Source: Actinomycetes bacterium
GTDB lineage: Bacteria; Actinomycetota; Thermoleophilia; BMS3ABIN01
Direction: 5' to 3'
Length of the DNA stretch: 60,216 bases
NCBI GenBank assembly: GCA_021790115.1
Contig: JAJYIM010000005.1
Location: forward strand, 1-60,216
In this document: positions 1 to 4,590 of the stretch, piece by piece
Numbering within the stretch: the stretch's first letter is position 1
How the letters are laid out: each line of letters opens with the position of its first letter
Notes under the pieces: model-generated
Told to the model about the DNA's origin: nothing
The model's database searches: none
The model's input: the letters and a program-made list of their open reading frames with translations, nothing else
Program-made: the position numbers and the translations under genes

Positions 1-3
1 TTT

Positions 4-651
4 TCAGCCTCGTCGGTCCCCCCCCGTCTCCAGGTTAAGACGGATAAGATCAAAAATCTGGTAAAGGTCGTGCGGATACAAATCTATATGCCGATTCAGA
101 AGGTTGATATTACGTGCTCTTTTTTTATCAATGTCTTGCTTGCACCAAGGTTTGTGAATAATCGTTATCTCAGAGGGAACATATGCGCATAAATCTCGGT
201 TGGGAACTGTCAGCTTCTCATGAAAAATTCCTTCATACCTAACCTCTGGAGATCTCTTAAAAAGGCGCAGGCTTCTCATTGCTGTCCATTTGGGAGATAA
301 CTGTATGAGAACTTCGTACCCCCGGATCTCATCCCGCTGAACCGCCGCTTTTATTTGGTTTTTACTTTGCGGGGCAAGAACTTCATCGGCATCAAGAACA
401 AGAATCCAGTCCCCGCTAGCATGGTCAAGAGAAATATTGCGCGGAATTGAGAAGCTGTCATTCCATTGATGAAAGAAAATCAGAGCTCCAAACGATTCGG
501 CAATCGCGGCCGACTTATCACGTGACCCCGTATCAACCACAATTATTTCGTCTGCTACATCTTTGACACTATTGAGGCATTTTGCCAGATGCTCCTCCTC
601 GTCTCTGACGATCATGCAAAGGCTGATTGACGTAACGTCCATAATCTTCAC
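4..651 (-). CDS. GT2 glycosyltransferase (SunS-like / GT2-TPR type), probably truncated by a frameshift in a G8 tract near its 3' end
   Basis: SISLCMIVRDEE...IIVVDTGSRD, WILVLDADE (DxD), RLFK...YEGIFHE motifs; last gene of the minus-strand operon at the window edge. Confidence 0.85.
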   Translation of the reverse strand: MKIMDVTSISLCMIVRDEEEHLAKCLNSVKDVADEIIVVDTGSRDKSAAIAESFGALIFFHQWNDSFSIPRNISLDHASGDWILVLDADEVLAPQSKNQIKAAVQRDEIRGYEVLIQLSPKWTAMRSLRLFKRSPEVRYEGIFHEKLTVPNRDLCAYVPSEITIIHKPWCKQDIDKKRARNINLLNRHIDLYPHDLYQIFDLIRLNLETGGDRRG

Positions 652-664
652 GCAAAAGAACTTC

Positions 665-958
665 TCAGGGTGCAGACAAAACGGCCAGATTCAATCTTTT
701 CATTTCATCTATGAACCTCATTATGTCTGCACGCGCCCGCTCCTCATCCACGTCAAATCTGAGGCACACCCCTTCAATAATTTCCTGAATGGTTCTTTCC
801 CCGTCGCAGTTTTTCCATAGAAAGCTCGCCGTTTTATTAAGCTGAAATACCTTCTCCTCGTCATCCTTTATTAAAATAATGAAGAGATCCGACTCGATTT
901 CCCGCCAGGCAACATTTTCGTCAATCCGGTTAATGCGGCATTTGCTGATATCCTCCAT
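665..958 (-). CDS. PqqD-family protein / RiPP recognition element (RRE)
   Basis: 97 aa; VAWREIE...FQLNKTASFLWKNCDGERTIQEIIEGVCLRFDVDEERARADIMRFIDEM is a typical PqqD pattern; GGAGG RBS before ATG 958. Confidence 0.9.
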   Translation of the reverse strand: MEDISKCRINRIDENVAWREIESDLFIILIKDDEEKVFQLNKTASFLWKNCDGERTIQEIIEGVCLRFDVDEERARADIMRFIDEMKRLNLAVLSAP

Positions 959-1817
959 GAACATCCTCCAGTGCTTCGATCGGGTCCCAAAAACTTTTAT
1001 CCCTTTTAAAAAAAAGGCGGTAGTATGGCACCTTTTCCGCCAACTCGTTCACACAATTCAACAAATATTGGAATGCTTGTCTTCGGCCCCCGGATAAAAC
1101 AGGCTGAGGCAGAAAGATTTCGGGCAGGACTGCGCTTGCAAATTCGTCCCGGCTGCCTTTCTCTATTTTTGCTTCATCGCTTTTATGCAGCGAAAAAAAC
1201 ATTGACAGCGGTCCCCTGCGATCTGAAAGACGGAGCTGCGTCGGGTTGAATGGAATTCCCTGTACAAGTGACCCCTTCTGACTCATGACAACCAAGTTCA
1301 TGTCGTCGTGAAGCACTTCGCATCTTTCAGAAAAATGGGCAACAGTACTTTTACCGCTCCCCGCGGGCCCAAAAAAGACGTATCCTTTCCCATTTTTGAT
1401 GACGGCAGAGCTGTGGACTATGAAGGCTTTTTTATCATCCCCCTTCTCTTTAAAGAACAGCGTATAAAAAATACGGCACATTATGCGGTTGAGGAGCCAG
1501 ATTTCTTCCGTACTGAGAATAGATTCGCTTAACGCAAGCCGACACGTCCTTTTTTTATCGTTCCAGGACCCTTTGATCAGGTCGGGGCCGAAGTTGAATT
1601 TATGCTTGTCAACAGAATGCACATAGCTTTTGCCTGACTCGATATTTGGAATATTCTCATCTGACAGAACGGAAACCTTGAGTGAAACGTCGGAAGGCGC
1701 TGCCGAGCTAGTTTCATCAAAATGAACCTTAATAAAATCGGCTACGTCTTCGCGCTCACATGTCAGATCAATGATAAAACTGCCAAATTGAACGCGCACT
1801 TCGACTTCTCTGGTCAT
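930..1817 (-). CDS. HprK-related kinase (resembles RiPP/lasso-peptide kinases)
   Basis: IVHSSAV catalytic His motif, Walker A GPAGSGKST, LHDD signature; overlaps the PqqD gene. Confidence 0.8.
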   Translation of the reverse strand: MTREVEVRVQFGSFIIDLTCEREDVADFIKVHFDETSSAAPSDVSLKVSVLSDENIPNIESGKSYVHSVDKHKFNFGPDLIKGSWNDKKRTCRLALSESILSTEEIWLLNRIMCRIFYTLFFKEKGDDKKAFIVHSSAVIKNGKGYVFFGPAGSGKSTVAHFSERCEVLHDDMNLVVMSQKGSLVQGIPFNPTQLRLSDRRGPLSMFFSLHKSDEAKIEKGSRDEFASAVLPEIFLPQPVLSGGRRQAFQYLLNCVNELAEKVPYYRLFFKRDKSFWDPIEALEDVHGGYQQMPH

Positions 1818-1934
1818 TCAGTTGATATTGCTCCAAATACAGAATCCTGTTTCCACTTTGTCATTCTTGTTTGTGGCCAATCAATCCCGACTCTTATAGG
1901 CTAATAAAAGAATTTTTATCTATACTCCAACGCC

Positions 1935-1980
1935 AAAAAGGCGCTTCCCATTTCTTGAAAGAAATAAAAAGCGCCTTTTT
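1935..1980. terminator. Intrinsic terminator-like stem-loop between peptide gene and kinase
   Basis: AAAAAGGCGCTT (1935-1946) / AAGCGCCTTTTT (1969-1980) perfect inverted repeat with inner ATTTCTT/AAGAAAT hairpin; T-tract on both strands. Confidence 0.75.
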
Positions 1981-2034
1981 CAGACTTGAATTTCTAGCCT
2001 TTTACAATCGCTTGCCGTTGACCGCTGAACTTGC

Positions 2035-2142
2035 TTATATGAAAGGACTTGCTACTGGCGGCATCCCAAAGCTAAAAGACTCCTCGAGGTCTATTTCTTC
2101 AATAACTGGGGATTCATATGCCTCTTTCGTCTTTCCTTCCAT
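2035..2142 (-). CDS. Putative RiPP precursor peptide, 35 aa: MEGKTKEAYESPVIEEIDLEESFSFGMPPVASPFI
   Basis: Hand-translated; strong AAGGAGG RBS, ATG at 2142, TAA at 2035-2037; YxxPxI leader motif; directly upstream of kinase and PqqD genes. Confidence 0.85.
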   Translation of the reverse strand: MEGKTKEAYESPVIEEIDLEESFSFGMPPVASPFI

Positions 2143-2265
2143 TGTTTTCCCCTCCTTCCCCTAAAAACTTACATAAATATTTCACGATCTTCGTAGTTTG
2201 TCAATAGAGGTACGATGCTTTCGTTGGCAATGTTTGCTTCGTGTTCTAACGGGAAATGATTAGGC

Positions 2266-2792: not shown

Positions 2793-3284
2793 TCAGTTTT
2801 TCATGTTGACAAACTGCAGGGGCATTCCCAGATCCTTTGCCTTCAACATGCTGATCACAGCCTGCAGGTCGTCAATCTTCTTGCCGTTAACTCGCACCTG
2901 GTCTTCCATGATCTTGGCCTGAACCTTGAGCTTCAGGCCTTTGATCATTTTGACAATCTGCTTGGCGCTGTCAGGCTCGACGCCATCGATAATGCGGATG
3001 TCGCGCTTGATCATGTCCCCGGCGGCAGGCTGAATTTCTCCCAGATCCATCGCCTTTGGATCGACGCCGCGCTTGGAAAGGTTGGCGGAAAGATCCCCCA
3101 GAACAGCTTTCATCTTCATGCTGTCCTCGGTAAGGAGATGGATGTGGTGGTCTTTCTTGTTCAGCGTCAGCTCCGTCCGCGAACCCCGAAAATCGTAGCG
3201 GGTGGCAATCATCTTTTTTGCCATGTTGACAGCGTTGTCAACTTCCTGCATGTCAACCCTGTTGACGATGTCAAAGGTGGCCAT
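2793..3284 (-). CDS. yajQ: YajQ family nucleotide/c-di-GMP-binding protein
   Basis: MATFDIVNRVDMQEVDNAVN...RYDFRG...QVRVNGKKIDDLQ...PLQFVN. Confidence 0.95.
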   Translation of the reverse strand: MATFDIVNRVDMQEVDNAVNMAKKMIATRYDFRGSRTELTLNKKDHHIHLLTEDSMKMKAVLGDLSANLSKRGVDPKAMDLGEIQPAAGDMIKRDIRIIDGVEPDSAKQIVKMIKGLKLKVQAKIMEDQVRVNGKKIDDLQAVISMLKAKDLGMPLQFVNMKN

Positions 3285-4590
3285 CAGCGCTCCTTTCTTT
3301 GCTTGCTGACGCTTGTGCAGGAACCAGGTTTCCCGGGAGCAGCATCAACACCAGCATTGCCCACAGCAGCAAGTCCCTCAGTGTGACCTCGCCGACCATA
3401 AATTCGCTCATCCCCACCAGTTGTGGATAATGATAAGGATATTCGTACTGGGTCAACAGCAGCGCCACCAGAAAAAGCGCCACGATCATTCGCCTGCCGC
3501 CGCCCATCGCGAGCGGGATCAGTGGCAGCAGCCAGATGACGTACTGCGGCGAAAAGACCTTGCCGAACAAGATGAAAGTCAACAGGCTGATGGCCGCGAA
3601 GCGCACGATTTCCGCCTGGCCACCCGCTTTGTTTACTCCCGCTTCCCGGCTGGAATGATAAAACGCATAGTATCCCAAAGCCAGCACGGTAGCCAGCACA
3701 AGCCCGGAAAGCAGCGAAATGACACCCGTGTGCATGGAGACGATATTATCTGAGCCATACGTGAATTCGGTTCTCACGGGAATTTTTAGCAGTTCTTTGG
3801 CCCACAGAAATGGCAACGCCCACGTACTTTCGAGCTGCACTGGCCGTTGTAAATGATTAAGGAAGGAGCGCAGCAGCCCGGCGGGCGCCATCAGCGCGTA
3901 AGGCAGCGCGATCAGCAACGCCGCCAACGCCATCGCCATCGGGCCAAGCCAGAACCGCTTGCGCCCCTGCCGGTAATCGCCAATGAAATAAAGCGGCGCA
4001 AGCAGAACTGGCACCAGCTTCAGCATGATGCCCACGCCCAGGAACGACCAAGCCAGCAACTTTTTCCCTTTTAGGAAAAACGCGAGACTGAGTATGACCA
4101 GGAAGGCAATCAGGAGGTCGAAGCGCACCTGGACAAGGCTGCCTGTGGCTACAATCGCGAGCGCGTAGGTTAATAGGACTGCTGCCAGTTGTTTCAGGCT
4201 CAGCCCGAAATGCCTGGCAGCCAGGCCCATCAGGACGGTGATGCTGCAGGAAAACACGAGGGTCTCGATTTCAAACCACAAGAAATACCGGTCGAAGTCG
4301 GGACCGGAAAACAGCCAGGGAAGATAGAATACCGGCACAACAACTGGAGGATATTCCAACGAGAAATCCCGGTAGGGAACCAAGCCGGCAGCAATCCGCT
4401 GAGCGTAAAAATAATAAAGGTGCACGCTGCTTGCAGATTTGTCCTGAAACCAGAAACGCTGGAAGAGGACGAACCATATCAGCACCTGAGCAAGCAGGAA
4501 AGCAGCGACGATCAGCCAGAATCCGTATGCGCGAACGATTTGCTTGCCCGACCCGCCCGCTGTGCCGGCGCTTTTGAGGATCCTTTTCAT
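3271..4590 (-). CDS. Polytopic membrane glycosyltransferase (GT87/DUF2029-like, GT-C fold)
   Basis: PYRDFSLEYPP, RFD, KLVP, KVFSPQYVIWLLP motifs; many TM segments. Confidence 0.75.
   Translation of the reverse strand: MKRILKSAGTAGGSGKQIVRAYGFWLIVAAFLLAQVLIWFVLFQRFWFQDKSASSVHLYYFYAQRIAAGLVPYRDFSLEYPPVVVPVFYLPWLFSGPDFDRYFLWFEIETLVFSCSITVLMGLAARHFGLSLKQLAAVLLTYALAIVATGSLVQVRFDLLIAFLVILSLAFFLKGKKLLAWSFLGVGIMLKLVPVLLAPLYFIGDYRQGRKRFWLGPMAMALAALLIALPYALMAPAGLLRSFLNHLQRPVQLESTWALPFLWAKELLKIPVRTEFTYGSDNIVSMHTGVISLLSGLVLATVLALGYYAFYHSSREAGVNKAGGQAEIVRFAAISLLTFILFGKVFSPQYVIWLLPLIPLAMGGGRRMIVALFLVALLLTQYEYPYHYPQLVGMSEFMVGEVTLRDLLLWAMLVLMLLPGNLVPAQASASKERSADGHL

Follow-up and report, generated by a model that had tools for sequence, protein, structure and literature searches.

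A horizontally acquired six-gene cassette in an Actinomycetes bacterium, probably an LPP-like peptide maturation pathway

The linear polyphosphorylated peptides (LPPs) were described from the lppA-K-B-S-D-N genes of Paenibacillus alginolyticus (Popov et al., Nat Commun 2026, PMC13381572). According to that report, their leaders share the consensus YxxPxVLxHQxIxFETxxS and an HprK-like kinase places several phosphates on Ser3 of the core, the acceptor having to be a serine. The leader peptidase LppS is SipW-like (catalytic residues S29/H68/D93), cuts after T-1, needs the discrete recognition element LppB and acts poorly on unphosphorylated precursor. LPP clusters also encode a nucleoside triphosphate (NTP)-transferase, LppN, and an MsbA-like exporter, LppD, and are described as restricted to Bacillota. 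Here we report a cassette at one end of a 60,216-nucleotide contig of an Actinomycetes bacterium (JAJYIM010000005.1, assembly GCA_021790115.1), the whole of which is called the window below. Judged from its sequence, it appears to be a self-contained, acquired six-gene cassette for a ribosomally synthesised and post-translationally modified peptide (RiPP), and probably an LPP-like pathway. The LPP family is the closest characterised system. A first-pass annotation of the window had known of no characterised class with this combination of genes, a statement that is out of date because the LPP family, described in 2026, uses an HprK-like kinase, a discrete RiPP recognition element (RRE) and a SipW-like leader peptidase.

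Paeninodin-type lasso peptides are phosphorylated on their C-terminal serine by an HprK-type kinase under the guidance of an RRE. The glycosylation of pseudomycoidin is reportedly the work of a nucleotidyltransferase-like enzyme and not of a family 2 glycosyltransferase (GT2). Pseudomycoidin is a lasso peptide whose terminal residue is phosphorylated, then glycosylated (Zyubko et al. 2019, PMC6993621). SynChlorMet systems (ScmC, ScmD, ScmE/F) include two radical SAM/SPASM maturases, ScmE and ScmF. Glycocins are bacteriocins whose SunS/ThuS-type enzymes attach S- or O-linked sugars, on a Cys or Ser of a helical hairpin peptide in the SunS family. Their pathways use a double-glycine leader and a peptidase-ABC exporter, and we know of none that has an RRE, kinases or a SipW-type peptidase.

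The order of the cassette is precursor, hairpin, kinase K1, PqqD-type RRE, GT2-TPR glycosyltransferase (TPR, tetratricopeptide repeat), kinase K2 and SipW-type serine peptidase. Its gene content, conservation, catalytic motifs, boundaries and acquisition are reported here as direct observations. In the window it is read at 4-2142 on the minus strand from the sequence and the list of open reading frames (ORFs). The precursor gene (2035..2142; 35 aa, MEGKTKEAYESPVIEEIDLEESFSFGMPPVASPFI), a YxxP peptide, is identified from that list and from orthologous ORFs upstream of K1. Folding places a strong hairpin, followed by a U-run, in the gap that separates the precursor from the enzyme genes (1935..1980). 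Next come K1, a P-loop kinase-like protein of 295 aa (930..1817) assigned to the ScmC family (PF27840) by its family label, motifs and hhalign comparison, and a discrete PqqD-family RRE of 99 aa (665..964; Pfam PqqD, 1.5e-17). The catalytic half of the glycosyltransferase follows as a 215-aa GT2 frame (4..651; Glycos_transf_2, 4e-20) with a D-A-D motif. All five of these features had been listed on the minus strand by the first-pass annotation and were recovered in place. Comparison of contigs locates a poly-G/C run, to which no strand is assigned, at the GT2-TPR junction (18..25).

The window is the start of its contig, C57. A second contig of the assembly, C43, overlaps window positions 1-136 in reverse complement with 98% identity, the sole difference being the length of the G run, and carries the operon on. 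It encodes the TPR half of the glycosyltransferase as a 182-aa frame that continues GT2 (L004:84-632), the kinase paralogue K2 with its H / Walker A / HDD core (L004:629-1495) and a SipW-type signal peptidase I of 177 aa recognised by the TIGR02228 and SipW models (L004:1516-2049); together they make up the remainder of the cassette outside the window (C43:137-2293). The stop of the GT2 frame at window positions 4-6 comes after the run of eight G at the contig break and is not the true gene end. The cluster does continue past the left edge, as had been expected, and a missing peptidase is there, of SipW type; the radical SAM enzyme and the nucleotidyltransferase also anticipated are absent.

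The cassette is a discrete, horizontally acquired unit of ~4.4 kb, of which window positions 1..2250 (minus strand) are delimited by an empty site in a related genome and by a contrast in GC content. No K1 orthologue at E <= 1e-20 was found in a further 300 genomes sampled from the same phylum, which include one genome of the same genus (G122, 98% complete) and two of the same family. In G122 both flanks of the cassette lie on one contig, 255 bp apart, and the cassette is absent; C57 and C43 are therefore neighbours. C43 is homologous to G122 up to C43:2293, a short way into a methyltransferase gene, and the window is homologous to it from 2251 onwards, 15 bases before msrB. The ~4.4 kb between these borders hold exactly the six genes. 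The methyltransferase gene (L004:2270-2878) was considered as a further member and rejected, as it belongs to the ancestral flank in which G122 homology begins at C43:2293. The two parts of the cassette have GC contents of 0.443 and 0.437, its flanks have 0.594 and 0.592, and the genome has 0.573, with only 0.7% of its 2-kb segments at values of 0.46 or below. RpoB is ~60% identical to the RpoB of three metagenome-assembled genomes (MAGs) sharing the cassette, while the cassette proteins are 42-62% identical. The empty site, the GC contrast, the absence from relatives and these identities argue for acquisition of the complete unit.

A pattern scan of species-representative genomes found K1 relatives at 46 loci, of which three are close and syntenic and 43 more distant. 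The close ones, with 42-49% identity, come from MAGs titled Thermodesulfovibrionia (L005), Thermodesulfobacteriota (L006) and 'Proteobacteria' (L007), and six further close loci (L051-L056) were found among the 80 metagenome loci kept. The same gene order and a conserved precursor occur in these nine other public loci. Counting the window, and at each position only the loci with sequence there, GT2 follows PqqD in 8/8, K2 follows the glycosyltransferase in 5/5 and the peptidase follows K2 in 4/4. A SipW/archaeal-type signal peptidase I shares an operon with a discrete PqqD gene in all four complete loci. A variant order is seen at L052:1276-3058, where PqqD is followed by two tandem precursors with different tails and then by K1, after which the contig ends.

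The precursor ORF is preceded by a strong Shine-Dalgarno-like GGAGG stretch. Orthologous short ORFs lie directly upstream of K1 in L005, L006, L007, L051, L052 (two copies), L054 and L056, so that all eight loci covering this region, window included, have one (L053 and L055 begin inside K1). The proposal of an RRE-dependent peptide-maturation operon with its own YxxP precursor stands with this conservation: the homologous loci have kept the short ORF rather than lost it. In the nine aligned precursors Y9, P12, E16, D18, E20, F23, S24, F25 and G26 (window numbering) are invariant, position 21 is E in seven and K in two, and position 22 is S in eight and T in one. All carry the motif Y9-x-x-P12-x-[V/I/M]. 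The conserved leader and junction extend from Y9 to G26. Beyond the F-S-F-G block the tails are variable, Pro-rich and 6-20 residues long, for total lengths of 28-41 aa; that of the window includes S32-P33. A serine lies 2-5 residues from the C-terminus in 9/9, followed by P in eight and G in one. Cysteine is absent from 8/9, and the window peptide has no D or E after S22. Pairwise codon differences in the 18-codon block from Y to G comprise 243 synonymous and 136 non-synonymous changes, and the invariant residues are encoded by one to three codons each. This predominance of synonymous changes indicates that conservation acts on the protein.

The best PDB match of the RRE is 9x8z_B (LppB, E 0.0022), ahead of the lasso protein TbiB1 (0.01), and its best NCBIfam match is ScmD at 40.7 bits (cut-off 100). 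Structure 9x8z is the LppB-leader complex, in which N33 and D70 of LppB are reported to hold the Pro and Tyr of the leader (PMC13381572). They align with N43 (8/8 orthologues) and D80 (D in seven and E in one of eight) of the cassette protein, the published numbering having been mapped onto chain B of 9x8z with an offset of 18, for which Y27, T30, L32 and N33 served as anchors and F74 and M78 as checks. The peptidase scores 67.1 bits with TIGR02228 (cut-off 51.85) and 1.2e-9 with the SipW model. Its S27-M28, H65-R66 and G83-D84 pairs are kept in 10/10 aligned sequences, and S27, H65 and D84 correspond to the Ser/His/Asp triad described as mutated in LppS (PMC13381572).

The nearest PDB relatives of the glycosyltransferase are GmaR (2.9e-28), SunS (2e-17) and 7msk (2.7e-11). 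GmaR is a flagellin O-GlcNAc transferase and SunS a peptide S-glycosyltransferase. Like them, the cassette enzyme has a helical domain of TPR type behind a GT-A catalytic domain that bears a D-x-D motif. It reaches only 72.4 bits with the SunS family model TIGR04195, whose cut-off is 350, and the equivalog level is thus not attained. The cassette also differs from glycocin clusters in its precursors, which are mostly free of Cys and have Pro-rich tails.

Like the LPP clusters, the cassette has a discrete PqqD-type RRE with a YxxP leader and a SipW/archaeal-type leader peptidase with a Ser/His/Asp triad, and its P-loop kinase-like proteins may, from their core motifs, belong to the HprK superfamily as the LPP kinase does. 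Both lack a macrolactam cyclase and combine a conserved leader and junction with a variable C-terminus. In both a small hydroxyl residue follows an acidic or charged one just before the conserved Ser, and the [E/K]-[S/T] pair with its conserved Ser two residues on resembles E-T-x-x-S of the LPPs. However the cassette kinases belong to the ScmC family and there are two of them, whereas the LPP kinase is HprK-like (LppK could be compared by its description only), and the GT2-TPR protein stands where LPPs have the NTP-transferase. LPP precursors are longer (35-200 aa, with a core of 45 aa). In contrast to the Bacillota of the LPPs, the MAGs that carry the closest cassette copies are titled Thermodesulfovibrionia, Thermodesulfobacteriota and Proteobacteria, a point that concerns these MAG-labelled copies and not the window's own host. 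The supplements of PMC13381572 aside, the GT2-TPR enzyme, the second kinase, ScmC-type kinases and such very short cores are apparently undescribed in the literature.

From these likenesses we infer the chemical steps of an LPP-like pathway, their sequence and the point at which the leader is cut. The RRE would bind the 35-aa precursor by its YxxP motif (Y9-P12), and one or both of the HprK-like ScmC-family kinases would phosphorylate a serine. The candidates are S24 in the F-S-F-G block, put forward because it is strictly Ser, like the acceptor of the LPPs, and S32 of S32-P33. The latter recalls the C-terminal Ser of paeninodin-type peptides, and like the paeninodin/pseudomycoidin type all nine precursors have a conserved Ser near the C-terminus. 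The GmaR/SunS-like GT2-TPR enzyme may use an NDP-sugar to glycosylate either the hydroxyl of a Ser or Thr or the phosphate. The SipW-type peptidase (S27/H65/D84) would remove the leader in an RRE-dependent manner, preferably after S22 to leave a 13-residue core, or alternatively after G26 to leave nine residues. The first site is preferred because the [E/K]-[S/T] pair at 21-22 resembles the E-T at -2/-1 in the LPP consensus as reported. The small-residue rule at -1/-3 would equally allow a cut after G26. The predicted product is a short, linear, Pro-rich phospho- and/or glycopeptide.

K1 is predicted to be an ATP-dependent peptide Ser kinase with an HprK/PEPCK-like H...GxxGxGKST...HDD core. 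The motifs noticed at first, H135-S-S-A-V, G150-P-A-G-S-G-K-S-T and H170-D-D, prove invariant or nearly so in 12 aligned homologues. The description as an HprK-like kinase holds for this core but not for a significant Pfam family: against NCBIfam K1 matches ScmC at 4.9e-6 (26.1 bits, cut-off 125) and the HprK-related kinases A and B at 1.1e-3, all below cut-off. PF27840 (Atlas name ScmC) is the precomputed label of K1 and of all ten homologues found by word search. A K1 profile gave nothing significant against PDB sequences (best PEPCK, 0.07); with hhalign it aligned to the genome's own HprK_rel_A-type kinase on contig C58 at 96% probability (E 3e-9) over 54 columns of the catalytic core. K2 is 21% identical to K1 and has the same core, its H130, GxxxxGKTT and HDD motifs being kept in 5/5 orthologues. 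An exhaustive search of 1.84 billion representatives with K1 returned 2,770 proteins at E <= 1e-3, 343 at <= 1e-10 and only nine at <= 1e-30, so that K1 is a rare branch of a large family.

The 43 distant ScmC loci, analysed by BLAST and clustering, carry PqqD in at least 32 cases, a SipW-like peptidase in at least 20, a radical SAM/SPASM cluster in at least 27 and a C25 peptidase cluster in at least 28 (two members tested per cluster); many of these loci are incomplete, so the counts are lower bounds. The GT2 of the cassette occurs in 0/43 of these often incomplete loci. By their predicted genes they have the SynChlorMet-type architecture. The cassette shares with SynChlorMet the ScmC label and a ScmD-like PqqD protein, at scores far below the equivalog cut-offs. 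Unlike SynChlorMet, it has no radical SAM/SPASM maturase and carries instead the GT2-TPR gene and a second ScmC paralogue. ScmC-type loci with PqqD, radical SAM/SPASM proteins, SipW-like peptidases and very large C25 (gingipain-type) peptidases are seen in named MAGs (L008-L050) and metagenome contigs (L057-L130), the MAG titles including Chloroflexota, Acidobacteriota, Methylomirabilota, Nitrospirota, Omnitrophota and others. Literature searches found no paper on such loci. One of the Atlas clusters, with 69 members, bears the label of a Peptidase S24-like/ScmC fusion, with ScmC on 26% and Peptidase_S24 on 14% of its members. If real, the fusion would link peptidase and kinase-like protein functionally, and it is mentioned as a lead only.

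These data bear on the possibility that the pathway makes a glycopeptide only, the GT2-TPR enzyme O-glycosylating S24 or S32 and the ScmC proteins serving as ATP-dependent scaffolds, chaperones or leader-handling factors. GmaR and SunS, the relatives of the glycosyltransferase, do act on proteins or peptides, no characterised ScmC activity was found in the literature, and the pairing of 27 of the 43 distant ScmC loci with radical SAM/SPASM maturases does not obviously need a kinase. Such a pathway is nevertheless unlikely. The His, Walker A and HDD elements are arranged as in HprK/PEPCK-type phosphotransferases and are invariant in K1 and K2, the K1 profile aligns with an HprK_rel_A-type kinase as said above, and the equivalent LPP gene is, by the report, a proven Ser kinase (PMC13381572).

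The state of the glycosyltransferase depends on the G tract. It counts eight G in C57 (window 18-25), 11 in C43:112-122 and ten in a Logan contig of sequencing run X1. With eight as with 11 G the GT2 frame stops at 215 or 216 codons. The X1 contig (5,997 bp) covers L004:1-2100 and extends 2,882 bases before the first base of L004; it differs from C43 by one G fewer and nothing else. It is not counted as independent data because X1 may be the source sample. Run X2 covered only parts of the stretch, at low depth, and X3 next to none of it, and neither was used as evidence. When tract lengths of 7-12 G were tried, only seven or ten joined the frames, into 380 or 381 aa, and 214 of 380 residues of the joined GT2-TPR protein are identical to the L005 orthologue. 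Orthologues are single GT2 + TPR ORFs of 380-389 aa in 4/4 complete loci. As the 10-G tract joins the two frames, the enzyme is likely to be intact, and on these reading frames we regard it as most likely intact in this organism. The homopolymer is absent at this site from five orthologues, and the whole genome has only 13 G/C runs of eight or more. The tract could be a phase-variable switch or an assembly artefact; likewise the contig break there reflects either an assembly problem or real heterogeneity of tract length.

Decay or silencing of the cassette in its host, with a frameshifted glycosyltransferase, would account for the truncated frames of 215 or 216 aa in both assembly contigs. This is quite unlikely given the intact 381-aa frame of the X1 contig with its ten G and the intact state of all other cassette genes, and contig breaks at long homopolymers suggest a read or assembly problem or population heterogeneity instead.

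The hairpin behind the precursor (1980..1935) has 21 paired positions and a predicted stability of -28.7 kcal/mol (z = -6.0; none of 200 shuffles as stable). Comparable hairpins with U-runs stand behind the precursors of L006 (z -7.1) and L052 (z -6.9); that of L051 is weaker (z -2.7). A fold of L005:655-700 gave z -0.2, the L005 hairpin being situated just upstream of the folded stretch. A simple terminator scan, which counts at most 20 pairs, reported none because the predicted pairing runs well past that number. The hairpin is probably a partial terminator or attenuator setting the ratio of precursor to enzymes. A promoter scan gave two sites, as many as the 2.0 that chance alone would produce, and the TTGACA-17-AATATT match at 2204..2176 is therefore not taken as evidence.

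As the short ORF is followed by an attenuator-like hairpin and the best PDB relative of the glycosyltransferase is GmaR, the short ORF might encode a regulatory leader peptide, the enzymes modifying a cellular protein in the way GmaR modifies flagellin. We consider this very improbable. The peptide is kept at the amino-acid level with synonymous drift, its YxxP motif stands beside a PqqD protein with matching Asn and Asp, and no complete locus lacks the precursor, the RRE or the leader peptidase.

Two other RRE loci were noted in the genome, and neither adjoins the cassette. At C58:56511-58367 (L132:338-2194) a 366-aa HprK_rel_A-like kinase (2.3e-16) is encoded with a lasso-type PqqD (B1) and a B2 protease (38.9 bits, cut-off 33); no cyclase adjoins them, and Asn-synthase-like genes are on C34 and C20. 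At C39:20892-22343 (L131) a PqqD and radical SAM/SPASM pair is followed by a 61-aa ORF (to 22590) with a Y-R-A-P stretch and a Cys-rich C-terminus, presumably a sactipeptide- or ranthipeptide-type precursor. In the genome Transglut_core3 is matched only on C58 and Asn_synthase on C34, C20, C11, C8 and C59.

Neither a lasso B2 protease nor an Asn-synthetase-like cyclase is present among the six genes or in their flanks; beyond the left edge lie the TPR half, K2 and the SipW-like peptidase and then ancestral flank, rather than a lasso cyclase. With the low SunS score and the scarcity of Cys in the precursors, this agrees with the earlier view that the cluster is neither of lasso nor of glycocin type. 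The cassette differs from phosphorylated lasso clusters in lacking the B2 protease, the cyclase and, in the window's core, the ring-forming Asp/Glu that lasso peptides have at core position 7-9. That it tailors a lasso peptide made elsewhere, for which the kinase-B1-B2 locus on C58 would be the candidate partner and the frequent co-occurrence of LPP and lasso clusters, as reported in PMC13381572, a precedent, is rejected as most improbable, since the candidate core from F23 or M27 has no Asp/Glu for ring closure, no cyclase adjoins the cassette or the C58 locus, and the cassette, a recent insertion, is equipped with an RRE, a precursor and a leader peptidase of its own and recurs as one block in other genomes.

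Several points weigh against the LPP-like pathway favoured here. Its leader matches that of the LPPs as reported only in the first third, Yxx-P-x-hydrophobic, the H-Q-x-I-x-F part being absent, and the distance from Y to the candidate cut sites is 14 or 18 residues as against 16. The six genes include neither NTP-transferase nor MsbA-like exporter domains, both of which belong to the LPP core, and the nearby MacB/HlyD genes on C43 are ancestral flank, found also beside the empty site in G122. By their sequences K1 and K2 are only remotely HprK-like. They have no Pfam match at E <= 0.1 except PEPCK_ATP at 0.044, the NCBIfam scores are far under the cut-offs, K2 matches no family at all, and the literature search found no characterised ScmC member. 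Both contigs of the assembly carry a frameshifted glycosyltransferase (8 and 11 G), and the 10-G form is that of one contig that may come from the same data. Finally, even for the LPPs the NTP-transferase was reported to be inactive in the heterologous host (PMC13381572).

Beyond the cassette, the ancestral flank in the window includes a 439-aa polytopic membrane protein (3271-4590, minus strand) with a marginal GT87 match (25.5 bits, cut-off 25). In L005 and L051 an unrelated-looking methyltransferase-like gene follows the peptidase. That of L051 (L051:4207-4796), directly after the peptidase, is similar to L005:4431-5309 and seemingly cut short. Beside it is a small ORF that we take to resemble the OrfA of IS3-type transposases, and both features fit a mobile context. 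The RpoB of the host (C12, L142:466-4032) is short, with 1188 aa, and ~55-70% identical to that of the eight named MAGs with a match, of ten tried. BamA (TIGR03303) was not found in the 97.6%-complete genome, whereas all seven diderm controls matched. The host is probably a monoderm.

If the LPP-like pathway is as proposed, the LPP logic of RRE, kinase and SipW-type leader peptidase exists in a compact and mobile form, and the MAGs with its closest copies are labelled Nitrospirota-type, Desulfobacterota-type and Proteobacteria. With its compact layout, a glycosyltransferase recognisably of the peptide/protein type and a core of very few residues, the cassette may be better suited than the LPPs for establishing the structure of a mature phospho- or glycopeptide. 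The ScmC family, with its 2,770 representative clusters at E <= 1e-3, SynChlorMet cassettes included, would be tied to a testable activity. More tentatively, the cassette may form part of a broader scheme. It might stand for a small RiPP class of its own, of Pro-rich linear peptides of 6-20 residues bearing phosphate and sugar, in which each of two diverged ScmC-type kinases acts on a different conserved serine, S24 or S32, and the sugar is attached by the GmaR/SunS-like GT2-TPR enzyme, while ScmC, PqqD and a SipW-like peptidase might constitute a general module that phosphorylates and then cleaves the leader. If true, this module would explain the SynChlorMet-type cassettes that occur widely across Chloroflexota, Acidobacteriota, Nitrospirota and further phyla, and in this organism the poly-G tract might switch glycosylation on and off.

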